A DNA stretch of 64,000 bases, from the NCBI GenBank assembly GCA_964483405.1, contig CAZABC010000004.1, positions 1,329 through 65,328 on the forward strand, written 5' to 3'. The notes under the pieces were generated by a model that did no database searches, was not told where the DNA came from, and saw only the letters and a list, made by a program, of their open reading frames with translations. The DNA is from an uncultured Anaerolineaceae bacterium. Lineage in GTDB: Bacteria > Chloroflexota > Limnocylindria > Limnocylindrales > CSP1-4. Positions within the stretch are counted from its first letter, which is position 1. Every line of letters begins with the position of its first letter. Positions 7,441-23,085 of the stretch are shown one piece after another. A program made the position numbers and the translations under genes.

Positions 7441-8187
7441 GTGGCACGATCGTCGCCAGCGGAGGAGGCGGGCGCGATGGTGAGCACGACCGGCGGGAGC
7501 GAGACGTCCCGGACCGAGGGGCCGCGGGAGCGGGCACGCGCGGAGGTCCTTGCGGCATGCCGCCGGATGGCGGCGGAGCACCTCGTCCCGTTCACCGCCG
7601 GCAACGTCAGCGTCCGGGTGGCCGGCGAGCCCGGGGTGTTCGCGGTCACGCCGACCGCCCTGCCGTACGACGAGCTCGAGTCGGCCGACGTCGCGATCGT
7701 CGCAGCGACCGGCGCGGTCCTCGATGGACGGTGCCCGCCGACCTCCGAGCTGCCGCTCCACACGCTCGTCTATACCCGTCGGCCCGAGGTCGGGGCGATC
7801 GTCCACACCCACAGCACGGCCGCGATGGCGATGGCGGCACTCGGCCTGACGCTGCCGGCCTTCCTCACCGGCCTCGTCGACGCGACCGGCGGCGCGGTGG
7901 CGACGGCGCCGTACGCCCGCCCCGGGACCTCGGCAATGGCGGACGCCGTCGAGGCGGCGCTGCGCGAACGAGGCGCCTGCTTCCTCCGCCACCACGGCCT
8001 CCTCGCGATCGGCGCCGACATCGGGCGGGCGTACCGGGCGGCCGCGGTCACCGAGAGCGCCGCCGACGCGTACCTCCGTGCCCGCGCCGTCGGACCCGTG
8101 CCCGAGCTCGCACCCGAGGAGGTGGACTGGATCGCCGAGGGCTGGCGCGCCCAGTGGTCCGGCACCGCGGTCGCGACCCGGGGCTGA
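7441..8187 (+). CDS. Class II aldolase/adducin-family protein (L-fuculose-phosphate aldolase-like).
   Basis: LVPFTAGNVSVRV and HTHSTAAMAMAALG match the class II aldolase fold motifs. The start could instead be the ATG at 7477 (MVSTTGG). Confidence 0.8.
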   Translation: MARSSPAEEAGAMVSTTGGSETSRTEGPRERARAEVLAACRRMAAEHLVPFTAGNVSVRVAGEPGVFAVTPTALPYDELESADVAIVAATGAVLDGRCPPTSELPLHTLVYTRRPEVGAIVHTHSTAAMAMAALGLTLPAFLTGLVDATGGAVATAPYARPGTSAMADAVEAALRERGACFLRHHGLLAIGADIGRAYRAAAVTESAADAYLRARAVGPVPELAPEEVDWIAEGWRAQWSGTAVATRG

Positions 8188-8215
8188 GTCCGACCGGCAC
8201 CGCGGCCGGTCGTCA

Positions 8216-9886
8216 TCAGCCGGGCGCTGGCCCCGGGCGATCCACGCCGCGCCGCCGTTCCCGGATCCCGTCGACGAGCCGGCGCGCCATCCCGACCTCC
8301 GGGGCGCCGGAGCGCCACGAGAGGACGGCATAGAGCAGCGCCCCCGCGCCGCCCGCGACCCCGATGGCGATGACCCCCGCGATCGGGCCGTGGGGCGGGG
8401 CGTCGAAAGCGAGCAGTCGATCCGCCACGACGGCCGCCAGCAACCCGGCGAGGGTCGCGAAGGCGAGCGACCGAACGGCCGGACCGGCGGTCGTCCGCCA
8501 GGCCGGTCCGGGGACCCGCCGGACCAGCGCGACGACGAGGAGCGTCGCCGCGGCCGTGGCGCCGAGCGAGAAGGCCGCGGCGATCCCGTCGAGGCCGGCC
8601 CGACCGGTCAGGAAGACGAGGACGATCGTGGTGATCGAGAGATCGAGGCCCGCGGCCCCGACCGACGTCACCGTCCGGTCGGTCGCGTACAGCGCCCGGT
8701 TGGCGAACGCCGCGACCGAGGCGGCGGGCAGGCCGAGGAACAGCAGGGTGAGCGCGCCCGCCGTGAGCGCCACGGACGCGTCGTCGTACCGGCCGTGGCC
8801 GAAGAGCAGGTCCGCGATCTCGGGCGCCAGCCCGACGGCGAGGGCCGTCACCGGCAGGACGAGGAACAGGACGAGCCGGAGCGACGACGTCACGAGGCGG
8901 CCGAGCGACGCGGCCGCGCCCCGGGCGTGCTGGGCCGCCATCTCGGGGAGGGCCACGGTCCCGAGCGGGACCGCGAGCACCCCGGCCGGGATCTGGAAGA
9001 TCGTGTAGGCGATGGTGAACGCGGTGACCGATCCGGCGGGCAGCGTGCTGGCGAAGGCGAGGGCCAGGATGATCTTCAGCTGGTCGACCGAGAGCCCGAA
9101 CGCCCGCGGCCCGAGGAGGCCGATCGCGCGCCGGAGACCCGGGTCGGCGACGCCGAGCTCGGGACGGATCCGGAGACCCATGCCGTGGAGGGCCGGCAGC
9201 TGGACGACGAGGTAGGCGACGGACCCGCCGAAGACGCCGACCGAGAGCGCGTGCGGACCGAGCGGCCCGCTGAGGAGCAGCGCGCTGCCGACCGAGACGA
9301 CGTTGTAGGCGATCGGCCCGAGGATCGCCGGCCCGTAGCGCCGATCGGCCTGGAGGATCCCGCCGACCATCCCGCCGAGGCCCAGGAGCAGCGGCGCGAA
9401 GGCCAACTCCCGCGACAGGGCGATCGCGAGCTCGCGTGTCGCGGGATCGAACCCGGGCGCCAAGAGCGGGATGAGCAGCGGCGCGACGGCGACGATGAGG
9501 AGGCCGAACAGGGCGAGGCCGACCGCCGCCCAGGTCAGGAGCCCCGACGCCGTCCGCGACGCCTGCCCGTGCCCGCCACCGGCCAGCACGTGGGCGATCG
9601 GCGTGACGACGGCTGCGGCGAGAGCGCCGCTCGCGACGAGGCTGAGGACGAGGTCCGGGAGGCGGAAGGCGACGGAGAACGCATCGAGCTCGCGACCCGC
9701 GCCGAAGATCGCGGCGTAGACGAGCAGCCGGACGTAGCCAAGGGCCCGGGCGACGACGTACCCGACCAGGACGAGCGTCCCGGCCCGGGCCAGCGACGCC
9801 GCGAGAGCGCCGGGCAGCGCTGCCGACGCCGCGGCGTTTCCCGCGGGGCTCGGATCGTCGAGGCTCACCGGGCAAGTATCTTCCAC
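8216..9886 (-). CDS. murJ: Lipid II flippase MurJ (MviN family).
   Basis: 556 aa with about 14 TM segments. N-terminal LVGYVVARALGYVRLLVYAAIFGAG is the characteristic MurJ N-terminus. Confidence 0.85.
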   Translation of the reverse strand: MEDTCPVSLDDPSPAGNAAASAALPGALAASLARAGTLVLVGYVVARALGYVRLLVYAAIFGAGRELDAFSVAFRLPDLVLSLVASGALAAAVVTPIAHVLAGGGHGQASRTASGLLTWAAVGLALFGLLIVAVAPLLIPLLAPGFDPATRELAIALSRELAFAPLLLGLGGMVGGILQADRRYGPAILGPIAYNVVSVGSALLLSGPLGPHALSVGVFGGSVAYLVVQLPALHGMGLRIRPELGVADPGLRRAIGLLGPRAFGLSVDQLKIILALAFASTLPAGSVTAFTIAYTIFQIPAGVLAVPLGTVALPEMAAQHARGAAASLGRLVTSSLRLVLFLVLPVTALAVGLAPEIADLLFGHGRYDDASVALTAGALTLLFLGLPAASVAAFANRALYATDRTVTSVGAAGLDLSITTIVLVFLTGRAGLDGIAAAFSLGATAAATLLVVALVRRVPGPAWRTTAGPAVRSLAFATLAGLLAAVVADRLLAFDAPPHGPIAGVIAIGVAGGAGALLYAVLSWRSGAPEVGMARRLVDGIRERRRGVDRPGPAPG

Positions 9887-9971
9887 CGCGATCCGCCGGT
9901 CGCGGCTAGAATCCGGGTCGCGGCCACGGCGACAGACGTCACCGGGCCGCCGGCAACCCCGTCAGAGGCAC

Positions 9972-11483
9972 ATGGCACGAACACGCTACCCGGCGCGCCC
10001 GCCCGCGGCCGGGCCGCGGCGATCGCCCGGCATCGCGGCCTTCCTCAGCTTCCTCGTCCCCGGCCTCGGCACGGCATGGGCCGGCGAGCGCGAGCGGGGG
10101 ATCCGGATCAGCCTGCCGTTCGTCACGCTCGTCGTCGTCGCCCTGCTGGTCGCGCTCGTCGCCGGCGGCCTGACCGGCCTGGCCGGGCTCGTCGTCCAGC
10201 CGAGCGTGCTCCTCCTCATCGTCGTCCTCGACCTCGCCTGCCTCGTCTATCGAAGCTGGGCGATCGTCGACGGCTTCCGGGTGGCGCGGGGTCCGCGGAC
10301 CCGCCACGGATCGACCGCCGCGGGCGGCATGATCGTCGTCGCGGTCCTCCTCGCGATCACGGTCGCGACCCACGGCGCGGTCGCCTACGTCGGCTGGAAC
10401 GCCTACGACCTCGTCACCGGCGTCTTCAGCGCCGGCGGCGGCGAGGGACCCGCCTGGGGCGACGAGGTGAGCGCCGAACCGTCGCCCGACCCCTCCCCGA
10501 GCCCGGAACCGTCACCCGACGCCTCGGCGAGCTCGACGCCATCGCTCGCGCCGAGCCCGAGCCCGTCGCCGAGCCCCAGCCCGTCGCCCGACCCGTCGGC
10601 CCCGTACTGGGCGGACGACGGGCGGCTCAATCTCCTGCTCCTCGGCGGCGACGCCGGGCCAGGCCGCGAATCGATCCGGACCGACTCGATGATCCTCCTG
10701 ACGGTCGACCTGGCGACGGCCCGGGCCGCTCTCGCGAGCATCCCCCGCAACCTCCTGAACGTGCCCCTCCCCAAGCCGTACGCCCAGCGGTTCCGGAACG
10801 GCGTCTTCCCGGGCATGCTCAACGCGCTCTGGCGCTACGCGAACGACCGGCCGAAGCTGTTCCCGGGCAACGACGAGACCCGGGGCTTCCGGGCGATCTC
10901 GGCGGCCGTCGGCCACATCACCGGCACCCGGATCGACGGGCTCGCCTACGTCGACCTCAACGGCTTCGTCCGGGTCGTCGATGCCCTCGGCGGGCTCGAG
11001 ATCGACGTGCCGTACCGCGTCTACGACCAGCGCTACCCGAACGAGGACGGCAATGGCACCCGGGTGGTCGACATCCGGCCCGGGATCCAGACGCTCGACG
11101 GCTCGACGGTGCTGGCCTTCGCCCGGACCCGGCGCCAGGACTCGGACTACGGCCGGATCTCGCGCCAGCAGCTCGTCCTCCTCGCGTTCCGCCGGCAGGT
11201 GAACCCGTGCACCCTCCTGCCGCGGCTGCCCGAGCTCGTCGGGATCGCGAAGGAGACGATGTACACGAACATCCCGGTCGAGGAGCTGCCCCGTCTGCTC
11301 GCCCTGGCGACCGAGATCGAGACGTCGCGGATCGAGCGGATCGCCTTCACCCCGGCGAACGGCTACCCGGAGGTCGCGACGAAGGCGTCGGTCGAGAAGA
11401 TGCGGCGGGCGATCCGCGACGCCTTCAAGGGCGACCCGCCGCCCCCCGACGGTGGCCCGGACCTGTCGCTGCTGAGCTGCTGA
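9972..11483 (+). CDS. LytR-CpsA-Psr (LCP) family cell-envelope phosphotransferase.
   Basis: N-terminal TM segments, a Pro/Ser-rich linker (SPDPSPSPEPSPD...SPSPSPSPSPSPDPS), then the LCP core (LNLLLLGGDAGPGRESIRTDSMILLTVD...RTRRQDSDYGRISRQQ). Confidence 0.85.
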   Translation: MARTRYPARPPAAGPRRSPGIAAFLSFLVPGLGTAWAGERERGIRISLPFVTLVVVALLVALVAGGLTGLAGLVVQPSVLLLIVVLDLACLVYRSWAIVDGFRVARGPRTRHGSTAAGGMIVVAVLLAITVATHGAVAYVGWNAYDLVTGVFSAGGGEGPAWGDEVSAEPSPDPSPSPEPSPDASASSTPSLAPSPSPSPSPSPSPDPSAPYWADDGRLNLLLLGGDAGPGRESIRTDSMILLTVDLATARAALASIPRNLLNVPLPKPYAQRFRNGVFPGMLNALWRYANDRPKLFPGNDETRGFRAISAAVGHITGTRIDGLAYVDLNGFVRVVDALGGLEIDVPYRVYDQRYPNEDGNGTRVVDIRPGIQTLDGSTVLAFARTRRQDSDYGRISRQQLVLLAFRRQVNPCTLLPRLPELVGIAKETMYTNIPVEELPRLLALATEIETSRIERIAFTPANGYPEVATKASVEKMRRAIRDAFKGDPPPPDGGPDLSLLSC

Positions 11484-11514
11484 GCGGCTCGCCACCACGG
11501 CCGGGCTCGGTCGG

Positions 11515-13029
11515 TCAGCCGCGCGGCGCCGCCGTGATCGCGCCCTGTGGCTCGACGACCGTGAGCGTCCCGCCGTACATCCCCATCGAACAGGTGTAGG
11601 CGATCGTCCCGGGCTCGAGCGGCGGGAGGTCGATGACGTTCTCGCCCTTCGCGAGCGTCACGGCGATGTCGAGCGTCGGGACGACGAGGAAGACCGCGCA
11701 CGACCGCGGCTCGAGCGAGTCGACGATCCAGCGGGTCGGCAACCGCGCGTAGAGGGCCGTGTCGGCCGGCAGATAGCCGTCGGCGACCTGGAAGGTCCGC
11801 AGGGTCTGGACCCCGTCCTCGATCGTGACGACCGGGGTCGGGCCGCCGCCGGCCGCGTCCCCGCCGCCGGCTCCGCCGACGGTCGCGGCGACGGCGTCGA
11901 GCGATGGCGAGAGGCCGAGCAGCCGCAGGCCGGCCATCCCGTTGACGAGGGCGAACCCGAGGATGACGACGCCGATGACCCGCAGGAGCGTCGGTCGCGA
12001 CGCGGCCGGGAGCAGGTTCGGCAGCCCACCGAGGGCGAGAAGCCCGGGGGCGGTCCCGAGCGCGAAGACACCCATGATCGCGCCGGCATGGAGCGGCTCG
12101 CCGGTGGCGAGGGCGACGACCTGGACGGCCTGGGTGAAGCCGCAGGGCAGGAAGAACGAGGCGGCGCCGAGGACCGCGGCCCGCGTGTCCGAGTAGGTCG
12201 AGGCCGCCGAGGCGTCGACGCCGAGCGCCCGGGCGAGGCCCGTCGGGAGGGTCGGCGACCAGGCGGCGATGCGCGGCGAGATCCCCGTCAGGCGCGTCCC
12301 GAGGAGGGTCATCAGCAGCGCCACGACGATCATGAGGACCGCGGTGAGGACTGGCGGCATCGAGATCGAGGCGCCGACCGCGCCGAGGAGCGCTCCGAGC
12401 ACGGCGAAGCCGACGACGCGTCCGCCGACGAAGACGGCGCTCGGCCGGAGCCGCATGCCGATCGAGCCATCGGCCGTCTCCGGGTGGCGGGCGGCGAACG
12501 TAGCCGACAGGGCCAGGACGAGCCCGCCGACGAGCGCGAGGCAGGTCGAGACGCCCGCGGCGAGACCGAGGAGCAGGGCGACGACGAGGCCGCCCTCGGC
12601 GAGGTCGCCGGCGCTCGAGGCGAGATCGGTGAACCCCGTCAGCTCGGCGAGGGCGACGATGGCCGCGACGACGAGGAGGCCGAGCCCGGCCGTCGCCCAG
12701 ACGGCCCGGTCGCCCGAGAGCCACGGCGACCGGCCGATCGCGTAGCCCGCCGCCTCGATGGCGGCCGCGAGCTCGGCGGTCGACACCGGGCCGGCCGCCT
12801 TGATCCGGACCCTGCCCGCGACCGCCGACGCGGAGACGCCGACGACGTCGGGCAGGGCAGCGAGGTGGTGCTCGATCCGTCGCTCGCAGGTCCGGCAGGT
12901 CATCCCGGCGACCGGCACGTCGAACGAGGTTGGCACGGGCGCAGGCCGAACCGCCGCGGGCTTGTGCGCCTTCGCGGAGGACGCCGGTCGGGGACGACGG
13001 GACGCGCCGGACATGGGCCGAGCATGCAT
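11515..13029 (-). CDS. HMA-domain, DsbD_2/TauE-like membrane domain and C-terminal cupredoxin-like domain fusion. Putative copper-handling membrane protein.
   Basis: N-terminal heavy-metal-associated motif GMTCRTCERRIE, about 8 TM segments with FFLPCGFTQAV, and a C-terminal soluble domain with YTCSMGMYGGTLTVV. Confidence 0.75.
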   Translation of the reverse strand: MHARPMSGASRRPRPASSAKAHKPAAVRPAPVPTSFDVPVAGMTCRTCERRIEHHLAALPDVVGVSASAVAGRVRIKAAGPVSTAELAAAIEAAGYAIGRSPWLSGDRAVWATAGLGLLVVAAIVALAELTGFTDLASSAGDLAEGGLVVALLLGLAAGVSTCLALVGGLVLALSATFAARHPETADGSIGMRLRPSAVFVGGRVVGFAVLGALLGAVGASISMPPVLTAVLMIVVALLMTLLGTRLTGISPRIAAWSPTLPTGLARALGVDASAASTYSDTRAAVLGAASFFLPCGFTQAVQVVALATGEPLHAGAIMGVFALGTAPGLLALGGLPNLLPAASRPTLLRVIGVVILGFALVNGMAGLRLLGLSPSLDAVAATVGGAGGGDAAGGGPTPVVTIEDGVQTLRTFQVADGYLPADTALYARLPTRWIVDSLEPRSCAVFLVVPTLDIAVTLAKGENVIDLPPLEPGTIAYTCSMGMYGGTLTVVEPQGAITAAPRG

Positions 13030-13143: not shown

Positions 13144-14250
13144 CTACCCCTGGCGCAATGGCGGCATCGGGACCGGGATGTCGAGCATCGTCGCACCGAC
13201 GCCGACGCCGCCCTCGCACGTGTTCGGTGGTTGTGTCCCGATACCGCGCGTCGAGGGCTTCTCGGCCGCCCAGAACATGAACCCGAGCATCCCGGGCGTC
13301 GCGCCCGCCAGCTTCGGCTCGACGGTCCGGACGAAGGTAGCCGTCGACTGCTGGAGCGAGGAGGCGAAGGTCGAGCACTCGGGCCGGACCCGCGAGCCTT
13401 CGGCCACGTAGACGCTGCCGGTGAACCTGGCCGGGGCGAGCGGCGGGATCGGCGGGTCGTACTGCGGCTTGCCGTCGACGTGCTCCTGCCAGTTCGCGAT
13501 CGCCGCGGAGGTCGACGGCTGCTTCGAGGGGACCATCGCATTCGCGTAGTCGAGGACCGGCGCGTCGGTCCGGAGCCAGTCGGCGGTCGCCTTGCGGGTG
13601 ATGCCGATGAGCCAACGGTCGCCCGCCGCGAGGTCGATCGTCAGCCGCGCCGCCGGGTTCGCGCCCGTCGCGTCATACGGATGGATCGCCCGGTAGGCGG
13701 TGATGAAGGCCTGCAGGCCGGTCAGGTCCGGGCTGCGGTTCTCCTCGTAGTCGATCTCGATGCCGACGCCGAGGTCCGTGGCCAGCTCGGCGGCCGCCCG
13801 ACCGAGGCCCGCCGCGTCCTTCGCGAGCGCCTGGTTCCAGGCCTTCGTGTAGGTGATGCCGCCGATCGACAGCATCACCCTGATCCCGTGTGACGTGAAG
13901 TACTCGACGATCGCCGGGGTCATCCCCTTCGGGACACCGCCGACCGTCGTCGCGTCGGTCGTCCCCTCGAGGAGCTTGAGCGGATGGACGAACGAGAGGA
14001 CGACGAGGTTGACCGACGGGCGTCCGTCGCCGCGGTCGACGAGCCAGTGGTTCATGGCATCGAACTCGTCGACCCCCCGGGCCCGGCCCCAGGTGCAGTA
14101 GTCGTCGGAACAGTGCCAGGCGCCGTAGACCTGGAGCTGGACGGCCTCGGCCGCCCGGACGCCCCGGGCGCCGGCGACCGGCGACCCGGTGCCAGCAAGG
14201 CCCGCGAGCATCGCGGCAAGGATCGAGATCGACACGAGGCGACGGCCCAT
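13144..14250 (-). CDS. Secreted glycoside hydrolase family 18-like (chitinase-like) protein.
   Basis: Signal peptide (MGRRLVSISILAAMLAGLAGTGSPVAGARG) and a GH18-like catalytic-motif region (LGVGIEIDYEE). The family assignment is tentative. Confidence 0.55.
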   Translation of the reverse strand: MGRRLVSISILAAMLAGLAGTGSPVAGARGVRAAEAVQLQVYGAWHCSDDYCTWGRARGVDEFDAMNHWLVDRGDGRPSVNLVVLSFVHPLKLLEGTTDATTVGGVPKGMTPAIVEYFTSHGIRVMLSIGGITYTKAWNQALAKDAAGLGRAAAELATDLGVGIEIDYEENRSPDLTGLQAFITAYRAIHPYDATGANPAARLTIDLAAGDRWLIGITRKATADWLRTDAPVLDYANAMVPSKQPSTSAAIANWQEHVDGKPQYDPPIPPLAPARFTGSVYVAEGSRVRPECSTFASSLQQSTATFVRTVEPKLAGATPGMLGFMFWAAEKPSTRGIGTQPPNTCEGGVGVGATMLDIPVPMPPLRQG

Positions 14251-14401: not shown

Positions 14402-16045
14402 TCAGGCCGGCGTCGGCGCGCTCGTCGGCGGTGGCAGCAGCGAACCAGGGGCGAGCTTGGACGGCAGGAAGATCCCGATCGCCCCCTTCAGGCCGACGGT
14501 CATCACGATGTTCAGGAGGAACGCGAGGAGCGCGAGCAGCAGGAGCCCGCCGCAGAGTCCGGCCAGGATCATGAACAGCTCGTACTCGTCCTCGTAGTAG
14601 ATCGTCCGCCGGAGCATGCCCTGCAGCCCGGCCATGCCCATGAAGGCGCCCATCCCGATCCCGCCGACGAGATGGGCCCAGAAGTGGAAGGTCGCGAGCT
14701 TCTGGCTCCACAGCTTGGCCCCGTTGGTCAGGATGGGCAGCAGGAGATAGATGGCCGAGTAGAGGGTCATCGTCAGGCCGACGAGGACCGCGACGTGGAC
14801 GTGCGGGCCGATGACCCACTGCGTGTTGTGGAGGATGCGGTTGAGGCCGACGTCGGCCTGGAGGATGCCGGCGGCCACGCCGAGCCCGAACCCCGTCAGG
14901 CCACCGAGCAGGAACTTCAGCTCGTTGGTCATCTTGAGCGGCCTCGCGGTCCAGAGGGTCGCCAGCGTGATGAAGAAGGCCAGACCCTGGGTGACGAGCT
15001 CGAACGCGGTCACGAGCTCGCCGGAGACCACCTTGAGCATCGCCGGCTGGGCCTGGTCCGAGAGGAGGTGATGGGACCACACCGTCCACGACACGACGAG
15101 CTCGAGGAGCAGGGCGGCCCGGGCCACGTTGGCCATGAAGACCGGCTTACCGGTGATCAGGTTCGCGAGGAGGTACCAGGTGCCCGCGACCCAGATGAGG
15201 ACGAGACCGTCGGCGATGAGGTCGAGACCCCACCAGAAGAAGTTCTTGTAGAGGAGGGCGTCGACGATCGTCGACTGCAGGGAGATACCGACGGCCGCGG
15301 CGACGAGGAAGATGAGGATGAGGATGCCGCTCGCCAGGATGACGAACGAGTTGAGCAGCGCGTCGACGGCCCCGCGGGCGATCGCCGCCACCGCCAGCGG
15401 CACGGGCTCCTCGCTCTCCGGGCGCCGCCTGGCGATGTTGCGGAACCCGGTCAGGCCGATGGCCGACCGGAAGAGCGGACCCTTCGGCTGATGGGGCTCG
15501 CCCTTCGGCGTGTAGAGGATCGTCGCGAACACGTTGAGGACGAACAGCAGCGTCCCGAGCATCACGAGCGCAACGCCGACGATGAAGATCGAGCCCGCCA
15601 CCGGGTCGAACTGCGACGTGTCGGCCGGCAGCGGCCAGTACAGCGTGTACAGCGGGGCGTAGTGCGTGATGAAGCCGTCGAACCAGAACACGAAGGTGCC
15701 GATCGCGATCAGCCAGAACGTGGCCTGGGCCGCGCGGAAGCTCCAGAGTGGCTTCTTCATGAGGAACGGGACGAGGAACAGGAACGCCCCGAAGGCGATC
15801 ATGTAGGTCGAACCGAAGATGCCGACGAGCGGGTGCGCCGTCAGGATGCCGAAGTACTGGTCGGCCGGGATGAGCGGGATCGGCTCGACGGCGTAGATGC
15901 GCATGATCCCGCCCTCGATCGCGGCGAAGGCGTAGTAGACGAGACCGACGATCACGAAGCGAAGCGTCAGCTTCTGCATCGGGGTCATCGTCTCTGCCCG
16001 GAACGCGCGCTGGTTCCCCTGGACCAGCGTCTCGACGATCGTCAT
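14402..16045 (-). CDS. Heme-copper oxidase subunit I family protein (NOR-like or B-type oxidase catalytic subunit).
   Basis: 547 aa with 12 or more TM segments. The WSHHLLS HH motif (CuB ligands) and conserved His in HVHVAVL and HFWAHLVGG are present. The HPLVG motif lacks the A-family HPEVY tyrosine. Confidence 0.8.
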   Translation of the reverse strand: MTIVETLVQGNQRAFRAETMTPMQKLTLRFVIVGLVYYAFAAIEGGIMRIYAVEPIPLIPADQYFGILTAHPLVGIFGSTYMIAFGAFLFLVPFLMKKPLWSFRAAQATFWLIAIGTFVFWFDGFITHYAPLYTLYWPLPADTSQFDPVAGSIFIVGVALVMLGTLLFVLNVFATILYTPKGEPHQPKGPLFRSAIGLTGFRNIARRRPESEEPVPLAVAAIARGAVDALLNSFVILASGILILIFLVAAAVGISLQSTIVDALLYKNFFWWGLDLIADGLVLIWVAGTWYLLANLITGKPVFMANVARAALLLELVVSWTVWSHHLLSDQAQPAMLKVVSGELVTAFELVTQGLAFFITLATLWTARPLKMTNELKFLLGGLTGFGLGVAAGILQADVGLNRILHNTQWVIGPHVHVAVLVGLTMTLYSAIYLLLPILTNGAKLWSQKLATFHFWAHLVGGIGMGAFMGMAGLQGMLRRTIYYEDEYELFMILAGLCGGLLLLALLAFLLNIVMTVGLKGAIGIFLPSKLAPGSLLPPPTSAPTPA

Positions 16046-16638
16046 CGCGTCACACCCGCTTCCTCGGACGTCGTGCAGCCGGCGACCTCGACGGCGTCCT
16101 CGACGACCATCCGGTGCCCTTCGGGGCCGGAGTACTCGGTCGAGCGGATGTCGTAGACCCCGTTCTTGTCGAAGGTCCAGATCACGTCATTCCGATGACC
16201 CGGGACGACCTGCATCTGGAAGACCATCGAGTGGTCCTGTCGGAAGAGCCCGAAGCCGTACGTGAGATCCGCGGTCGTGACATCGAAGGCGACCATGTCG
16301 CCGCAATCGATGAGCAGCCGCTCGGCCGGCAGCGTGAAGGCGTGCTCGGCGACGGTGATCTCGAAGGTCTTGTCGGGGGTGACCGCCTCGCGATCGAGGT
16401 CGACCTCCACCCACGGGATCGTGTTCGCGCTCACGAGATGGAGCGACACCCCGGTGACGACGAGGACGCCCGCCCACCCGACGAAGAACCACGTCGGGAC
16501 CGTGTTCGACGAGCCGACCCTGGTCACCTTGTAGGCGAAGGCGCCGACCACGACGAGCACCGCGAGGGCGTACAGCGTGTAGACGAGCGCCTGCCCCCAC
16601 AGGACGACGCTCGAGTCGACAGGGCCTGGGTCGGGCAT
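16042..16638 (-). CDS. Heme-copper oxidase subunit II-like cupredoxin protein with a degenerate CuA site.
   Basis: One N-terminal TM segment plus a cupredoxin domain. The CuA-like segment reads STEYSGPEGHRM, with Ser where the CxExCG cysteines should be. The gene is translationally coupled to subunit I (4-nt overlap). Confidence 0.7.
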   Translation of the reverse strand: MPDPGPVDSSVVLWGQALVYTLYALAVLVVVGAFAYKVTRVGSSNTVPTWFFVGWAGVLVVTGVSLHLVSANTIPWVEVDLDREAVTPDKTFEITVAEHAFTLPAERLLIDCGDMVAFDVTTADLTYGFGLFRQDHSMVFQMQVVPGHRNDVIWTFDKNGVYDIRSTEYSGPEGHRMVVEDAVEVAGCTTSEEAGVTR

Positions 16639-16921
16639 GGGCGCGCACCTCCGGGCGGGCCGCCCCTCGCTCGGCTGGCCCTACACGAACGACGGCGCCA
16701 AGTCCGGGACGCTGGCGCCGCGGTCAGCATCGAAGGAGGGCGCCGCCGTCGACAGGGCCCTTCGGAGCGTCGCCCACGTCCACTCTTCCCGATCCGCCGT
16801 ACGATCGGCCCGACCCACAGCGCGGCCCGCGCGGACCGGTCGTTCGGGCGAAAGGACCCTCGACGGCCGCGCCGGCATGCCGGAAGACTCGGGCAGGACG
16901 TGAAGCGCATCGAGGAGGTCG

Positions 16922-17125
16922 ATGATGCAGGGCAAAGTCGGCGACCGGATCCTCGTCGAAACGGAGCGCGCCGGTCAGCGGGACCGATCGGGCGAGATCG
17001 TCGAGGTCCTCGAGGCATCGACCGGGATCCGCTACCGCGTCCGCTGGGACGATGGCCACGAGTCGGTCATCCAGCCCGCGGCCGGCAGCGCCCGGATCGT
17101 GGCCGCGACGAAGCGCCGGACCTGA
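16922..17125 (+). CDS. DUF1918 domain small protein.
   Basis: 67 aa. GDRILVETERAGQRDRSGEIVEVLEASTGIRYRVRWDDGHESVIQP matches the DUF1918 pattern. Confidence 0.7.
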   Translation: MMQGKVGDRILVETERAGQRDRSGEIVEVLEASTGIRYRVRWDDGHESVIQPAAGSARIVAATKRRT

Positions 17126-17134
17126 CCGCCCGGG

Positions 17135-18517
17135 GTGTCGGCGCCGACGGCTGGATCGCGTCCGACGCTCCCCTCTCCGCGCCGCATCGTCCGCGAGCTG
17201 CGGACGGAGTTCCCGCCGGTCGTCCAGGTCCTCGCGGCGGGCGACCTGGTCGCGAGCTTCGGCTTCAGCCTGTTCTTCCCGTACCTGACGATCTACCTCG
17301 TCGAGACGCTCGGCGCGACGGCGGCGATGGCCGGGCTCGTCATCGCCGCGTACTCGCTGTGCTCGATCGTCTCGGGGCTCGTCGGCGGCTGGCTGGCCGA
17401 TCGGATCGGCCGGCGACCCGTCCTCATCGGCTCGATCACCGCCACCGCGATCCTCGTCGCCTCGATGGCCTTCGCGACCGAGGTCTGGCAGGTCGCCCTG
17501 ATCTTCCTGCTCCTCGGCTCGATCGACCCGGCGTTCGCGCCGGCGGCCCGGGCGGCGATCGCCGACGTCGTGCCCGAGGAGCACCGCCCACGGGCCTACG
17601 GCCTGCTCGGCGTGGCGGCCGCCCTCGGCTGGATCGCCGGACCGACGATCGGCGCCGGCCTGTCGATCGTCGGCTACCCGCTCCTGTTCGGCGTGTCCGG
17701 CGCGCTCGTCGGCGGGTACACGCTCATCGCCTTGCGGTGGCTGCCCGAGACTCGGCCCGCCGGCGCCGGGCGACATGGACCACGGCCGGCCGTCGCCCGC
17801 CCGGAGCCCCGCATCGGCGCGGACGCGCGGATCGGCGCCGACCCGGAGGCGATCGGTCGGATCGACCCGGTCGAGCGACCCGCACCGACCGTCGCGGGCT
17901 CCGGCGATGCGTCCGCGTCCGACGCCGACCGCCTCCGGCGACGGGTCTTCGTCGCGCTCCTGCCGCTGCTCGTCCCGATCCACGCGGTGACCTTCATCTG
18001 GGTCACGACGCTGCCGATCCATGCGGCCGGCGACCTCGAGGTCGCCACACCGGTCTGGGGTGTCCTGTTCTCGATCAACGGCCTCCTCATCGTCCTCTTC
18101 CAGCTACGGATCTCGGGGCTGGCCGAGCGACGCTCGCGGCCGCGCGTCCTCGCGGGCTCGATGCTGCTGTACGCCACCGGGCTCGGGCTGGCCGCCGTCC
18201 TCTCGCCGACCACGGCCGTCGTCGGGCTCGCCGCGGTCATCGTCCTCGTCACCCTCGGCGAGATGCTCCTGATGCCGATCGAGCCGTCGCTCGTCTCGGA
18301 CATGTCGCCGGTCGCCCATCGCGGGGCCTACCAGGGGATGGCCCTCGCGGCCGGGAGCATCGGCGCCGCCCTCGGGCCGCCGCTCACCGGCCTCGCGCTC
18401 GACGGGGGCGCCGGCGGCGTGGTCTGGCTGGTCGCCGCGGCGATCCTCGTCGCCGTCGCGGGCGCGCTCGTCGCGCTCGCCCGTTGGACCGACCGGCTCC
18501 CGCCCGCACCGGCCTGA
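17135..18517 (+). CDS. MFS transporter.
   Basis: GTG start 10 nt after the DUF1918 stop. 12 TM segments with a GWLADRIGRRPV MFS motif, and a long central loop with a duplicated RIGADARIGAD. Confidence 0.85.
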   Translation: MSAPTAGSRPTLPSPRRIVRELRTEFPPVVQVLAAGDLVASFGFSLFFPYLTIYLVETLGATAAMAGLVIAAYSLCSIVSGLVGGWLADRIGRRPVLIGSITATAILVASMAFATEVWQVALIFLLLGSIDPAFAPAARAAIADVVPEEHRPRAYGLLGVAAALGWIAGPTIGAGLSIVGYPLLFGVSGALVGGYTLIALRWLPETRPAGAGRHGPRPAVARPEPRIGADARIGADPEAIGRIDPVERPAPTVAGSGDASASDADRLRRRVFVALLPLLVPIHAVTFIWVTTLPIHAAGDLEVATPVWGVLFSINGLLIVLFQLRISGLAERRSRPRVLAGSMLLYATGLGLAAVLSPTTAVVGLAAVIVLVTLGEMLLMPIEPSLVSDMSPVAHRGAYQGMALAAGSIGAALGPPLTGLALDGGAGGVVWLVAAAILVAVAGALVALARWTDRLPPAPA

Positions 18518-18543
18518 CGGATCGACCGGCCGGGCCCGCGGAG

Positions 18544-19254
18544 CTAGGCCGGCGCGACCTCGGCGACCGGCGGCTCGATCGCTGGCTCCGGCTCGATCTC
18601 GCCGCGGGCCAGGCGCTCGGCCCGGTCGCGGATGCCGCGGAGCATCGCCATCTCCATGAGGAAGTGGATGGGCTCGAGGCCGTACTGGTTGACGACGGCG
18701 CCGGCGGGGCTCGGCCGGTAGTCGCTCCGGAAGCGGACGACGAGCCGGCTGCCGAGCGGCGTCGGGCGGAGGACGAACGCCCAGCTCGGGTACGGCATGC
18801 CAGCCTCGAACGCGGCGGCGGCGTCACCGATCGGCCCGAGGACGAGGTGCCGCTCGGGCTCGAGCTCCTTGACCTCGAACGCGAGATCGGGCTGGGTGCC
18901 CTCCGGCACGAGCCGGATCCGGTCGCCGACCGCGAGGTTCTGCCACTCGGGGTGGATCGTGTCGGCGGAATGGAAGCCGAGCCCGGCGGCGTTCTCGAGA
19001 GCGTCGACGCTGTACAGGCCGCCCCGCCCGTGGCCCATCTGGACGATCCACGGCCAGACGTCCGACGGTGGCGCCGAGATGTCGATCGCCCGGGTCGAGA
19101 CCATCCTGGCGCCGGGGACGATGTCGTCGCCGGGGAGCGGTCCCTCGACCTCGGTCGCCGTGGCGCCCCAGCGCAGGAGCCGTGGGCGGGCGACGATCGC
19201 GTAGCCCGCCGCAGCGGCGGCCCCGATGACGAACAGACGCGTGAACGCGCTCAT
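18544..19254 (-). CDS. SRPBCC-superfamily (polyketide cyclase/START-like) protein with an N-terminal TM segment.
   Basis: 236 aa from the ATG at 19254 (MSAFTRLFVIGAAAAAGY...). The rest of the 591-aa ORF upstream is artifact. Confidence 0.55.
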   Translation of the reverse strand: MSAFTRLFVIGAAAAAGYAIVARPRLLRWGATATEVEGPLPGDDIVPGARMVSTRAIDISAPPSDVWPWIVQMGHGRGGLYSVDALENAAGLGFHSADTIHPEWQNLAVGDRIRLVPEGTQPDLAFEVKELEPERHLVLGPIGDAAAAFEAGMPYPSWAFVLRPTPLGSRLVVRFRSDYRPSPAGAVVNQYGLEPIHFLMEMAMLRGIRDRAERLARGEIEPEPAIEPPVAEVAPA

Positions 19255-19437
19255 GGCGTGCCACCTCGATCGATCAGCGGACCGCTCCGGCGGGAGGGGC
19301 CGGACGTCCGGAGAGGCCGAGTATCGCCCACCCCCGACCCGCCCGGCAGGGCCGGATGGCCGGGCCGGGGCCGTCGGGCCGGGCCGTCCGAACGCCGGTG
19401 GCAGACGGATCGACGGGCCGCTCGCCATACTCGGCCC

Positions 19438-20649
19438 ATGACCGACCACGCCGCCACCCACCCGCTCCTCGTCGAAGCTCGCGCCGACCTGCCCGCGATC
19501 GTGGCGGTCCGGCGGCGGCTCCATCGCCATCCGGAGGTCGGCCTCGAACTGCCCTGGACCCAGGCCGCCGTCGCCGAGGCGGTCGAGGGCCTCGGGCTCG
19601 CGCCGGCGCTCGGCCGGTCGGTCGGATCGGTGACCGCGACGATCGAGGGCGAGCGACCCGGCCCCACGATCCTCCTGCGGGCCGACATGGACGGCCTCCC
19701 GCTCCACGAGGACACCGGGCTCGACTTCGCCTCCGAGATCGACGGCCGGATGCACGCCTGCGGCCACGACACCCACGTCGCGATGCTCCTCGGCGGCGCC
19801 CGGCTCCTCCTGCGACGGCGAGCCCAGCTCCGCGGGCGGGTCCTGCTGATGTTCCAGCCCGGAGAGGAGGGGTTCCACGGGGCCCGGTCGATGCTCGAGG
19901 AGGGGCTGCTCGACACCGCGGCCGCCGCCCCGGTGACCCGGGCCTTCGCGATCCACATCAGCACCCAGTACGCCACCGGCGCGGTCCACCTCCGGGCGGG
20001 CGCGCTGCTCGCGAGCTCGGACACGATCCGGCTGACCGTCCGGGGCCGTGGCGGCCACGCCTCGGCTCCGCATGCCGCACTCGACCCGATCGCCGTGGCG
20101 GCCGAGATCGTCCTCGCCCTCCAGGCGATGGTCGGGCGGCGGATCGACGTGTTCGACCCGGCGGTCGTCACGATCGCCCGGTTCGCCGCCGGCACGACGA
20201 GCAACATCATCCCCGAGACCGCCGTGCTCGAGGGGACGTTCCGGACCGTCTCGGACGAGACGCGGGCGACGGTCCGCCGGCGCATCGGCGAGGTCGCCGA
20301 CGGGATCTGCGCCGCCCACGGCGCGACCGCCGAGCTCGAGATCGAGGCCGGCTACCCGGTGACGGTCAACGACGCGGCGGTGGCGGCCAGCGTCGCGGAC
20401 ACAGCGGCCGCGCTCGTCGGGGTCGCCGACGTGGCCGAGATGCCATCACCGATCATGGGCGCCGAGGACTTCTCGTACGTGCTCCAGCGGGTCCCGGGCG
20501 CGATGGCCTTCCTCGGCGCGACGCCCCGCGACGACGACCCGACGACCGCGCCGGCCAACCACTCGAACCGGGTCGTCTTCGACGAGGCCGCGCTGCCCGT
20601 CGGCGCCGCCCTCTACGCCGCGGTCGCGCTCGAGCACCTCGCCGGCTGA
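19438..20649 (+). CDS. M20D-family amidohydrolase (hippurate hydrolase / aminoacylase-like).
   Basis: LRADMDGLPLHEDTGLDFASEIDGRMHACGHDTH metal-binding signature. ATG at 19438 inside a longer artifact ORF. Confidence 0.85.
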   Translation: MTDHAATHPLLVEARADLPAIVAVRRRLHRHPEVGLELPWTQAAVAEAVEGLGLAPALGRSVGSVTATIEGERPGPTILLRADMDGLPLHEDTGLDFASEIDGRMHACGHDTHVAMLLGGARLLLRRRAQLRGRVLLMFQPGEEGFHGARSMLEEGLLDTAAAAPVTRAFAIHISTQYATGAVHLRAGALLASSDTIRLTVRGRGGHASAPHAALDPIAVAAEIVLALQAMVGRRIDVFDPAVVTIARFAAGTTSNIIPETAVLEGTFRTVSDETRATVRRRIGEVADGICAAHGATAELEIEAGYPVTVNDAAVAASVADTAAALVGVADVAEMPSPIMGAEDFSYVLQRVPGAMAFLGATPRDDDPTTAPANHSNRVVFDEAALPVGAALYAAVALEHLAG

Positions 20650-20657
20650 TGGTCGGC

Positions 20658-20677
20658 GACCGGCGCCGACGCCGGTC
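20658..20677. terminator. Hairpin GACCGGCG-CCGA-CGCCGGTC between convergent genes.
   Basis: 8-bp GC stem spanning the 27-bp gap between the M20D stop (20649) and the PDO-rhodanese stop (20676). Confidence 0.3.
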
Positions 20678-22133
20678 AGGCCGGGACCGCCGCCTCGGCC
20701 GCCTCGGCCGACCCGAGGGCGGCCTCGAAGCGCTCGGCCCAGCCGACGACCCCGCCGCGCCCGACGAGGCGGGCCGGGATCCCCGCGGCGTCGAGCAGGC
20801 TCGCCGCCATCGACGCTCGGTGGCCGGTGGTACAGACGACCCACCACTCGCGGTCCCCCGCGAGGCGGTCGATCGCGCCCGGCAGGTCGGCGACGAAGAT
20901 CCGCTCGGCCCCCGCGATCGCCCCGTCGTCGCGCCACTCGACGGGCTGGCGGACGTCGAGGATCGCCACGTCGCGGCCCGCCTCGACCCGGGTCTCGAAC
21001 AGCTCGCGCATCGTCGCGGTCGGGTACGAGCGGAGCTCGCGGCCGCTCGCGACCCAGGTGTCGACGCCGCCCGCGAGGCGCCCGACGATCCGGCCGTAGC
21101 CGATCCGGAGGAGCTGGACGACGGCCTCCTCGGCCGCCTCGGCGGCCCGGCTCGCCGGCTCGGGCAGGACCAGGACGACCGGCGCGTCGAACGGCAGCAG
21201 CCAGCCGACGTACGTCGAGAACGCCTCGGTCAGCTCGATGTTGACCGAGCCCGGGAGGTGGCCGGCGGCGAACTCGGCCCGGTCGCGGGTGTCGACGACG
21301 ACCGCGCCGGCCATGGCGAGCCGCTCCACCTGGGCGGGTGGCAGCGCGGCGACCGGCCGGGGCGCGCCGACGACCGGCGGGCCGGCCCGGTTGATCGGGC
21401 CCATGTGGGCGTAGTACGCCGGGAACCGGCCGAGGACCCGGAGCTGCTCGTCGAAGAAGGCGGCCTCGTCGGCGGCCAGCATCGCGGCGTTCGTCCGGCG
21501 CTCACGGCCGACGCTCGTGACCTGGCCGGCGCCGGGCACGTTGGCGACGCAGAACGAGCCGGCGCCGTGGGTCGGGTAGACGTCGACATCGTCGGGCAGC
21601 GCGGCGAACGCCCGGATCGTGGCGAACTGGGCCCGGGTCAACGCCTCGGTCGCCTCGGGCCCGACGAGGTCGGTCCGGCCGGCGCTGCCGATCAGCAGGC
21701 TCCCGCCGCTGAAGATGCCCTCGGGCGCCTGGTCCGGCAGGCCCGGGATCCGCTTGCCCGCACCGTCGAGCCGGTGGAGGTCCCAGGCGACGTGCTCGAA
21801 CGTGTGGCCGGGCGTCGCCCGGGCGACGAGCCGGAGTCCGCCGACCTCGACCGCCTCGCCGGCCTCGACGGGCCGATGCGGGAAGGCGTAGCCACCGAGC
21901 GCGGGGGCCAGGATCTCCGCGCCGGTCGCCGCGCGGACCTCGAGCGCGCCCGACACGTAGTCGTTGTGGGCGTGGGTCTCGAGGACGTACCGGACGCGCC
22001 AGCCGCGGCGCTCGGCGACCGACAGGAAGCGCCACGCATCGCGCTGCGGGTCGACGAGCGCGGCCTCGCCCGCCGAGGCGACGAGGTACGAGCTGTCCCC
22101 GAGCCCCGGGGTGGTGAAGACTTCCAGGTCCAC
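20676..22133 (-). CDS. Persulfide dioxygenase (MBL-fold) fused to tandem rhodanese domains (CstB-like).
   Basis: ETHAHNDYVSG HxHxDH metal site and MBL fold, followed by two rhodanese domains. The second has the active-site motif VVCTTGHRAS. GTG start at 22133, 6 bp after the TusA stop. Confidence 0.85.
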   Translation of the reverse strand: MDLEVFTTPGLGDSSYLVASAGEAALVDPQRDAWRFLSVAERRGWRVRYVLETHAHNDYVSGALEVRAATGAEILAPALGGYAFPHRPVEAGEAVEVGGLRLVARATPGHTFEHVAWDLHRLDGAGKRIPGLPDQAPEGIFSGGSLLIGSAGRTDLVGPEATEALTRAQFATIRAFAALPDDVDVYPTHGAGSFCVANVPGAGQVTSVGRERRTNAAMLAADEAAFFDEQLRVLGRFPAYYAHMGPINRAGPPVVGAPRPVAALPPAQVERLAMAGAVVVDTRDRAEFAAGHLPGSVNIELTEAFSTYVGWLLPFDAPVVLVLPEPASRAAEAAEEAVVQLLRIGYGRIVGRLAGGVDTWVASGRELRSYPTATMRELFETRVEAGRDVAILDVRQPVEWRDDGAIAGAERIFVADLPGAIDRLAGDREWWVVCTTGHRASMAASLLDAAGIPARLVGRGGVVGWAERFEAALGSAEAAEAAVPA

Positions 22134-22138
22134 GCCGG

Positions 22139-22378
22139 CTACGCGCTCTTGCGGACGTAGAACACGAGGGCGCCGTCCTCTTCGCCGCTCGCGACGAGCT
22201 CGTTGCCCGTGTCGTCCGCCCAGGCGGGCACGTCGGCCCTCGCCCCGCGGTCGGTCGCGAGGAGCTTCACGACCTGGCCGGGCTCGGCTGCTCGCAGCTC
22301 CCTGTTGAGCATGACGATCGGCATCGGACAGAGATGGCCGCGGGCATCGAGCACGCGGTCGGCGACGATCGGATCCAT
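22139..22378 (-). CDS. TusA-like sulfurtransferase (SirA/YedF/YeeD family).
   Basis: 79 aa with the CPxP motif LDARGHLCPMPIV. Confidence 0.8.
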   Translation of the reverse strand: MDPIVADRVLDARGHLCPMPIVMLNRELRAAEPGQVVKLLATDRGARADVPAWADDTGNELVASGEEDGALVFYVRKSA

Positions 22379-22392
22379 GGTCCCTCGGACGG

Positions 22393-23085
22393 TCAGATGA
22401 ACAGGGTGACGTGCGACTTGCGGGCCTCGGAGAGGAACGCGGCCGCGCCACCGAACTCGACGCCGTCGATGAACTGGTCCTCGGCGAAGCCGAAGACCTC
22501 CATCGTCATCTGGCAGGCGATGAGCCGGACGCCGGAGTCACGGGCGACGTCGAGGAGCTCGCGGATGCTCGCCACGCCCTTGCCCTTGAACTTGGACTTC
22601 ATCATCGACGTCGCCATCGGCGTCATCCCCGGCAGCGCGGTCACGAGCTGCGGCATCGGTACCGGCATCGGCATCGCCGGGTTGCCGGTCGTGCCGACCT
22701 GGAGCCGCGACTCGAAGTCGCGGTGGATGATATTGAGCCCGTAGAAGGTGAAGAAGATCGCGGTCTCCATCCCGGCCGCGGCCGCCGCGGTCGACAGGAT
22801 GAGCGGCGGGTAGGCCCAGTCGAGCGTGCCCTTGCTCGCGATGAGCATCGCCCGCTTCTTTGCGGGGTCGGTCCGGAACGCGCGCTCGACCTCCTCGCGG
22901 ACGATCCGGCGAACGTCGTCCTCGTCCACCGCGACGGCCCGGGGGCCAGGTTCGAGCGCCGTCAGGACCGGGGGCGCAGCCTGGGCACGCACCGGATCGG
23001 CAAGCGTCATCGGTGTCCTCCCTGCCGGTGCCACCCACCGGGGCGCGCGTCTCCGGGCGGGACGCGCAGAAAGCATACCGGACAA
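22393..23085 (-). CDS. DsrE/DsrF-like family protein.
   Basis: KKRAMLIASKGTLDWAYPPLILSTAAAAAGMETAIFFTFYGLNIIH core and a conserved Cys in RLIACQMTMEVFGF. The true start may be the internal ATG (MTLADPV, about 23010). Confidence 0.75.
   Translation of the reverse strand: MSGMLSARPARRRAPRWVAPAGRTPMTLADPVRAQAAPPVLTALEPGPRAVAVDEDDVRRIVREEVERAFRTDPAKKRAMLIASKGTLDWAYPPLILSTAAAAAGMETAIFFTFYGLNIIHRDFESRLQVGTTGNPAMPMPVPMPQLVTALPGMTPMATSMMKSKFKGKGVASIRELLDVARDSGVRLIACQMTMEVFGFAEDQFIDGVEFGGAAAFLSEARKSHVTLFI

Follow-up and report, generated by a model that had tools for sequence, protein, structure and literature searches.

Gene pair and coding context

The stretch of DNA analysed here (hereafter, the window) comprises 64,000 nucleotides of contig CAZABC010000004.1 (assembly GCA_964483405.1) from an uncultured Anaerolineaceae bacterium of the phylum Chloroflexota. 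Its minus strand carries two adjoining genes for subunits II and I of a heme-copper oxidoreductase (HCO), which very probably belongs to gNOR (NorGH), a family of predicted nitric oxide reductases (NORs). Both genes are intact in the list of open reading frames (ORFs) and have a coding-type GC content at third codon positions (GC3; 0.92 and 0.96 for the two ORFs) in a window of 74% GC. The stop codon of the subunit II gene and the start codon of the subunit I gene share an ATGA (GTGACGCGATGACG), which indicates translational coupling, and a GGAGG is located 8 nt ahead of the subunit II ATG. The identity of the divergent upstream gene as DUF1918 was confirmed by Pfam. A promoter scan of the intervening region (Table 1) found no match to the sigma-70 consensus, and in the 151-nt spacer after subunit I neither a terminator scan nor folding gave anything significant (z = -1.1).

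ORFs as long as 1511 aa (e.g., 8078-11599, 16114-20649, and 19356-22160, all on the plus strand) overlap real genes of the window in other frames or on other strands. These frames, in which Arg, Pro, Gly, and Asp abound, are not genes but artefacts that arise from a GC content of 74%.

Table 1. Positions of the gene pair, its functional residues, and selected neighbouring genes. Window positions are given without prefix; positions in related loci carry the locus name.
Feature	Position	Strand	Description
Subunit I (NorG-like)	14402-16045	(-)	ORF, 547 aa; 12-helix HCO catalytic subunit
Subunit II (NorH-like)	16042-16638	(-)	ORF, 198 aa; two N-terminal transmembrane helices and periplasmic cupredoxin domain without CuA
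Helix VI segment W271-WGLDLIADG-280	15206-15235	(-)	D275 at the CuB/FeB His position; D279 at the position of the cross-linked Tyr
H71 (LTAHPLVG, residues 68-75)	15833-15835	(-)	Helix II axial ligand of low-spin heme; aligns with ba3 H72 and CyoB H106
H325-H326 (WSHHLL)	15068-15073	(-)	Helix VII ligands of non-heme metal; align with ba3 H282/H283
H415-V-H417 (GPHVHV)	14795-14803	(-)	Helix X; align with ba3 H384/H386 and cbb3 H-V-H
Degenerate CuA loop R165-STEYSGPEGHR-M177	16108-16146	(-)	S166/S170 for both Cys, G174 for His, M177 retained
Upstream intergenic region, 283 bp	16639-16921	(-)	Shared with divergent DUF1918 gene; presumed promoter region
Rrf2 regulators, examples	L019:8892-9338, L022:8941-9354, L028:8945-9349		Also in 44 other loci
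Genes downstream of the pair in Bacteroidales	L032:12111-13358, L076:12111-13376, L076:13364-13879, L040:14249-14617		

Catalytic subunit and its helix VI active site

Subunit I matches Pfam COX1 (2.7e-54) and stays far below the cutoffs of the oxidase equivalogs CtaD (105 versus 671 bits), CcoN (68 versus 583), and SoxB (34 versus 700). Its AlphaFold2 (AF2) model (predicted TM-score 0.82) has 12 long helices, with extra cytoplasmic residues (~178-216) inserted between helices IV and V. Foldseek aligned the model to subunit I of aa3/bo3 oxidases with a TM-score of ~0.7 and to subunit I of ba3 with ~0.63. This result bears out an oxidase subunit I fold without separating the HCO families; the best sequence-profile match is the ba3-like group. 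Alignment to ba3 identifies H415 as the high-spin heme ligand and H417 as the second ligand of the low-spin heme. All five His of Table 1 and the segment W271-G280 (WWGLD.IADG) are invariant in an alignment of 23 sequences that reaches down to 39% identity and includes archaea.

It is this segment, WWGLDLIADG (residues 271-280), that is the true counterpart of the oxidase motif HPEVY, and it lacks both the His and the Tyr. Searches of PDB sequences with the single sequence or the family profile aligned only helix X or cross-aligned pseudo-symmetric cbb3 helix bundles. They were uninformative on helix VI and were replaced by hhalign, with Thermus thermophilus ba3 (identical to 1EHK_A and 1EHK_B), Escherichia coli CyoB/CyoA, and a profile of ba3-like relatives as references. 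The profile-profile alignment against ba3 and ten ba3-like relatives (probability 100%, E 7.8e-48, 470 columns) aligned D275 with H233 and D279 with Y237 and left G280 as an insertion of one residue, and the family profile against ba3 alone (probability 97%) likewise set D275 on H233. In a MAFFT alignment of 17 HCO sequences (12 distant full-length relatives, ba3, CyoB), D275 occupies an otherwise universal His column, while the Tyr column holds G280 and D279 appears as an insertion; there is no Tyr in either register. The same alignment replaces the ba3 K-channel residues S309/T312/T315/Y244 by Q353/A356/I359/A287 and retains ba3 Y248 as Y291. The D channel is not conserved either.

Subunit II, a cupredoxin without CuA

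The AF2 model of subunit II (mean predicted local distance difference test score, pLDDT, 83.4) consists of helices 9-39 and 49-73 followed by a beta-sandwich at residues 90-186. Its best PDB matches in Foldseek are ba3 subunit II and the isolated CuA domain thereof, COX2 (aa3), CyoA (bo3), and the CuA domain of nitrous oxide reductase (N2OR). Sequence similarity is faint by comparison, with an hhalign probability of 88% to ba3 subunit II, an NCBIfam CoxB score of 28.5 bits against a cutoff of 147.7, and no Pfam match for the subunit. At the position of the CuA motif it reads RSTEYSGPEGHRM, where CyoA of E. coli has SASYSGPGFSGM at the aligned position. According to hhalign, the ba3 CuA ligands H114, C149, Q151, C153, and H157 correspond to Y127, S166, E168, S170, and G174, and M160 corresponds to M177, the sole one retained among the five side-chain ligands. 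As four of these five are gone, a binuclear CuA is excluded. The loop nevertheless shows no sign of decay: RSTEYSG stands unchanged in all related loci (78 of 78) and in 32 database homologs, and the subunit II motifs DLTYGFG and QMQVxP are likewise invariant. A check for a cytochrome c motif, which an earlier reading of this DNA had in view, found no CxxCH (heme c) sequence in the subunit.

The only cysteines of subunit II are C112 (16303-16305) and C188 (16075-16077). They co-vary, in that homologs with Cys in the 'IDCGD' strand have a C-terminal 'GC' and those that lose one lose both. This pattern suggests a facultative periplasmic disulfide.

Assignment to the gNOR family

The gNOR branch was reportedly described as early as 2008, by Hemp & Gennis and by Sievert et al. 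It is defined as the only HCO family that replaces an active-site His, namely by Asp, and its cupredoxin subunit without CuA residues is 'similar to cytochrome bo3' (Murali et al. 2024, PMC11214002). The same study regards gNORs as probably quinol-oxidising and B-family-related enzymes of Bacteria and Archaea. Others give the residue at the Tyr position as 'D' (PMC8756737) and term norGH 'quinone-oxidizing' and non-electrogenic (PMC8906906), and the preprint version of Murali et al. reports that gNORs occur mostly in sulfidic habitats. Judged by these defining features, rather than by a tree with reference gNORs, we are highly confident that the gene pair encodes a member of this family. The locus thus adds a new member to a known enzyme family, and the result is mainly one of classification rather than discovery.

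Four other placements in the superfamily were considered and ruled out. An A-family aa3 or bo3 enzyme is incompatible with WWGLDLIADG in place of GHPEVY, the CtaD score below cutoff, and the absent CuA ligands. The B-family ba3 oxidases are excluded by D275 and D279, by the missing CuA, and by the loss of the K-channel residues, of which only Y291 is kept. Membership in the C-family cbb3 oxidases, the public label, fails on the ccoN score (68 versus 583) and on a partner that is a cupredoxin, not a cytochrome c. The cNOR/qNOR type has three His and Glu where two His and Asp are found here, and the pair has no heme c motif and a cupredoxin as subunit II.

The first-pass annotation, made from the sequence alone, had delimited the pair exactly (14402-16638). 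Its description of subunit II as a cupredoxin fold is borne out by the AF2 model and the Foldseek matches, and its reading of Ser for both CuA cysteines by the placement of S166/S170 on Cys149/Cys153, which excludes CuA binding. The CuB motif WSHHLLS that it named in subunit I is present. It had further taken HPLVG as the substitute for HPEVY; HPLVG does occur, but it belongs to the heme-ligand region of helix II and is not the helix VI counterpart. The conclusion drawn from it, that an active-site Tyr is missing, is true, but for a different reason, as helix VI reads WWGLDLIADG, and the His-to-Asp exchange had been overlooked. Its placement of the pair outside the classical aa3 oxidases, in a NOR-like and presumably quinol-oxidising branch, agrees with the published sequence criteria for gNOR.

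Distribution and gene neighbourhood

Subunit I is 100% identical to public proteins from metagenomes and metagenome-assembled genomes (MAGs) that are named 'cytochrome c oxidase subunit 1'. A protein search returned 3436 matches, and a scan of a genome collection recovered the family in at least 494 of 185,579 species genomes. These species are dominated by Bacteroidales, Chloroflexota, and Actinomycetota, and the pair mostly occurs on its own, preceded in many lineages by an Fe-S-type Rrf2 regulator. For locus comparisons we used the best 80 genomic loci among the at least 494 species with subunit I relatives. Their proteins are 67-85% identical to subunit I across many phyla and groups (Chloroflexota, Actinomycetota, many Bacteroidales and Prolixibacteraceae, Ignavibacteria, Chlorobiota, Aminicenantes, Marinimicrobia), and the closest relatives are Limnocylindrales-like Chloroflexota. 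The homologs uniformly bear the names 'cbb3-type cytochrome c oxidase subunit I' or 'cytochrome c oxidase subunit 1/2'. Neither name suits a pair that lacks the CuB His, the Tyr, and CuA and that includes a cupredoxin.

Clustering of a library at 50% identity reduced the family to one full-length representative and one relative with 47% identity, P0122; the next full-length sequences are only 23-35% identical. The subfamily of P0122 has the helix VI segment WWGLDMIADG and includes Thermoprotei and Methanomethylicia. As a query, P0122 matched archaeal and bacterial MAGs and no cultured reference. The nearest full-length relatives outside the family deviate at helix VI in other ways and may represent further unusual HCO families. 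In P0216 (WVALRFYLQGG), Arg occupies the column of the CuB His. P0189 (WWGLHSYVNQM), which comes from Nitrospinota/Nitrospirota MAGs, retains the His, has Asn/Gln close to the Tyr position, and shares the one-residue insertion.

The order of subunit II and subunit I is kept in 82 of 83 loci. The only other widely conserved neighbour is a regulator of the Rrf2 family of ~137 aa with the motif C-x6-C-x5-C-x-H. Its gene precedes subunit II by 3-119 bp, in the same orientation, in 47 of the 80 loci, mostly of Bacteroidota. These regulators pass the superfamily model only and stay below the cutoffs of NsrR, IscR, and RirA. A search for inverted repeats ahead of these genes yielded only loosely similar AT-rich palindromes (e.g., AAAATAnnnnnTATTTT), ~40-55 bp upstream of the Rrf2 start, and no recognisable NsrR box. 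No cytochrome c gene is recurrently adjacent to the pair.

Less frequent neighbours encode DUF438-hemerythrin-PAS_10, DUF1858/DUF2249, cupin, rhodanese, and YeeE/YedE-type sulfur transport proteins. In Bacteroidales loci, the DUF438-hemerythrin-PAS_10, DUF1858+DUF2249, and small cupin genes lie a few kb downstream of the pair (Table 1). The commonest neighbour family is Sulf_transp (YeeE/YedE-like; 9 of 141 ORFs), and rhodaneses occur in loci of Bacteroidota, some of which have split Sulf_transp and rhodanese genes (L028:11923-13155, L032:5740-6348, L076:4129-5166). The window encodes DsrE_2, TusA, and a fusion of metallo-beta-lactamase and rhodanese at 20676-23085 (-), 4-6.5 kb from the pair. 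The recurrence of sulfur genes in unrelated lineages is consistent with the reported bias of gNOR towards sulfidic habitats.

The genes that flank the pair in the window encode GH18-like, HMA-DsbD_2-cupredoxin, LCP-family, MFS transporter, and DUF1918 proteins. Outside contigs that are identical to the window, none of them accompanies the pair. The GH18-like protein (13144-14250 (-), 368 aa) has a signal-peptide-like N-terminus, matches Pfam GH18 below the cutoff (E 0.0044) and PDB chitinases at E 0.04; homologs of it were seen only in such identical contigs. Next to it, at 11515-13029 (-), a 504-aa fusion combines three domains: a CopZ-like HMA domain at the N-terminus, six membrane helices of the DsbD_2/CcdA-like type, and at the C-terminus a sub-cutoff match to Cupredoxin_1 (E 1.4e-4). 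The first-pass annotation had set both genes immediately upstream of the pair as parts of a copper-linked envelope module. They do adjoin the pair, but on the coding strand they lie downstream, and the module finds no support, as neither gene occurs within +/-10 kb of the pair in any of the 80 related loci, the 77-85% identical ones included.

Putative mechanism and alternative functions

Nitric oxide reduction is the predicted function of the pair that we favour, albeit with restraint. Electrons would be supplied by membrane quinol, menaquinol in these phyla, because there is no CuA or cytochrome c entry point. The quinol could be oxidised on subunit I, possibly near the invariant E44, which aligns with D75 of the bo3 quinol site in the low-identity hhalign alignment to CyoB; Q63 aligns with H98 there. 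From the low-spin heme, electrons would pass to the heme/non-heme metal centre. As the sequence shows, D275, H325, and H326 make up the second-metal site, and D279 follows after one turn of the helix, facing the same way. Such a centre of two His and one or two carboxylates would suit Fe(II), like FeB of cNOR (three His and Glu), and two NO could be reductively coupled there to N2O and H2O. The enzyme is probably not a proton pump, because the ba3 K-channel residues are not conserved. The occurrence as a stand-alone, regulator-linked pair suggests an inducible module for NO detoxification or respiration, not a part of a denitrification operon. Taken as a whole, we consider a two-subunit gNOR that derives from a B-type (ba3-like) oxidase and has given up O2 chemistry to be the probable explanation of the locus.

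Several observations weigh against this explanation. To our knowledge, no gNOR has ever been purified. NO reduction by gNOR is a literature prediction for the whole family (PMC11214002), and the preprint reports a His-to-Glu change of a heme ligand in gNOR that is absent here. Foldseek ranks A-family structures above ba3, and the B-family affinity rests on sequence profiles. The hhalign alignment to CyoB, which is weaker (probability 93.7%), shifts the register of helix VI by one residue and places L274 on the His, and the quinol site derives from a low-identity alignment only. At the level of gene context, the Rrf2 regulators reach 48-59 bits with the NsrR model, whose cutoff is 182, and the window itself is without an Rrf2 gene. 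Nitrite, nitrate, and N2O reductase genes are absent from the 64-kb window, nor does any of them recur in the set of 141 genes nearest to the pair in related loci.

It is conceivable, if rather unlikely, that this gNOR-family enzyme catalyses another reaction, with N2O, nitrite, or peroxide as substrate, by NO dismutation, or as a sulfide-tolerant, sulfur-linked electron sink. The lack of linkage to denitrification genes would fit such a role, as would the sulfur-handling genes nearby (Sulf_transp and rhodaneses, DsrE_2/TusA in the window) and the preference of gNOR for sulfidic habitats given in the preprint. An identity of 67-85% across phyla speaks for a very constrained mechanism. However, the sulfur genes are found in a minority of loci, and in the window unrelated genes intervene between them and the pair. 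Fe-S Rrf2 regulators and hemerythrin/DUF438 proteins are typical of nitrosative-stress responses. Every proven NOR of the superfamily has likewise lost the Tyr cofactor and carries a carboxylate among its second-metal ligands (PMC11214002).

That the pair is a bo3-like quinol oxidase which reduces O2 at an unconventional active site seems improbable to us. Its subunit II is degenerate in the same way as CyoA, the public labels read cytochrome c oxidase or cbb3-type subunit I, and the top Foldseek matches are O2 reductases. Yet all known O2-reducing HCOs keep three CuB His and the His-Tyr cofactor (PMC11214002), and both positions are invariant Asp in this family. The CtaD, CcoN, and SoxB scores far under their cutoffs and the lack of conservation in both the D channel and the ba3 K channel likewise argue against O2 reduction. 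Although the 74% GC window holds many long spurious ORFs on all strands, there is a negligible probability that the two ORFs adjoin by chance or are what is left of a decayed oxidase without catalytic function. Both have a coding-type GC3, and this reading is ruled out by the conservation data (thousands of full-length homologs, 67-85% cross-phylum identity, invariant cofactor ligands, and synteny in 82 of 83 loci).

Significance

The gNOR family is one of several predicted NOR families that perhaps contribute a large share of environmental N2O, and the locus exemplifies it cleanly and at full length in a GC-rich lineage of the Chloroflexota. Under its oxidase label, the organism would be scored with an additional O2 reductase and no NOR, and automated metabolic reconstructions will miscount in this way. 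The motifs WWGLD.IADG and RSTEYSG, the conservation across phyla, the Rrf2 linkage, and the absence of linked nir/nos genes define targets for experiments. A more far-reaching proposal, to which we give little credence at this time, is that the gNOR clade, which the locus typifies, is far wider than reported, mainly comprising Bacteroidales, Chloroflexota, and Actinomycetota other than classical denitrifiers, and that its centre of two His and two Asp may support a non-canonical, sulfide-tolerant or sulfur-linked activity or constitute an overlooked source of N2O in anaerobes that do not denitrify.

Comparison with known systems

With cNOR and qNOR (NorCB, NorZ), the preferred reading of the pair as a gNOR implies a common predicted reaction, and both lack the Tyr cofactor and have a carboxylate in the non-heme metal site. 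In cNOR, as here, this carboxylate lies four residues past the first metal ligand (E211 there, D279 here). The pair differs from these enzymes in its two His plus Asp, its probably ba3-like lineage, and its cupredoxin partner.

E. coli bo3 (CyoAB) shares the CuA-less cupredoxin with the Ser-x-x-Tyr-Ser-Gly-Pro loop (SASYSGPGFSGM versus RSTEYSGPEGHRM) and the quinol donor, which is putative for the pair. In contrast to the latter, bo3 keeps H284/Y288, reduces O2, and has D and K channels as well as subunits III and IV. Of its quinol-site residues, D75 aligns with the invariant E44, whereas R71 is replaced by F40, Q101 by G66, and H98 by Q63, which is only polar.

T. thermophilus ba3 (1EHK) has in common with the pair the 12-helix subunit I, the heme ligands, the HH pair, and the helix VI register FWW-x-x-[H/D], and its cupredoxin subunit II is the best structural match. 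The two enzymes are set apart by the changes H233 to D275 and Y237 to D279 with the accompanying insertion, by the loss of CuA, and by Q/A/I/A at the K-channel positions. In addition, subunit II has two transmembrane helices here and one in ba3, and the extra insertion between helices IV and V is found here.

The agreement is closest with gNOR itself. Shared with this family are the exchange of the helix VI His for Asp, the Asp at the Tyr position, and the two retained His of helix VII, the CuA-less cupredoxin subunit II, the absence of heme c, the probable relation to B-type enzymes, and the distribution over Bacteria and Archaea. The link to sulfidic or anoxic habitats and the lack of conservation of the B-type K channel are likewise common to both. 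What differs is the lack of the His-to-Glu heme-ligand change given in the preprint, and the host, which is a GC-rich, Limnocylindrales-like member of the Chloroflexota and does not belong to the Campylobacterota, Aquificota, or NC10 of the first reports.

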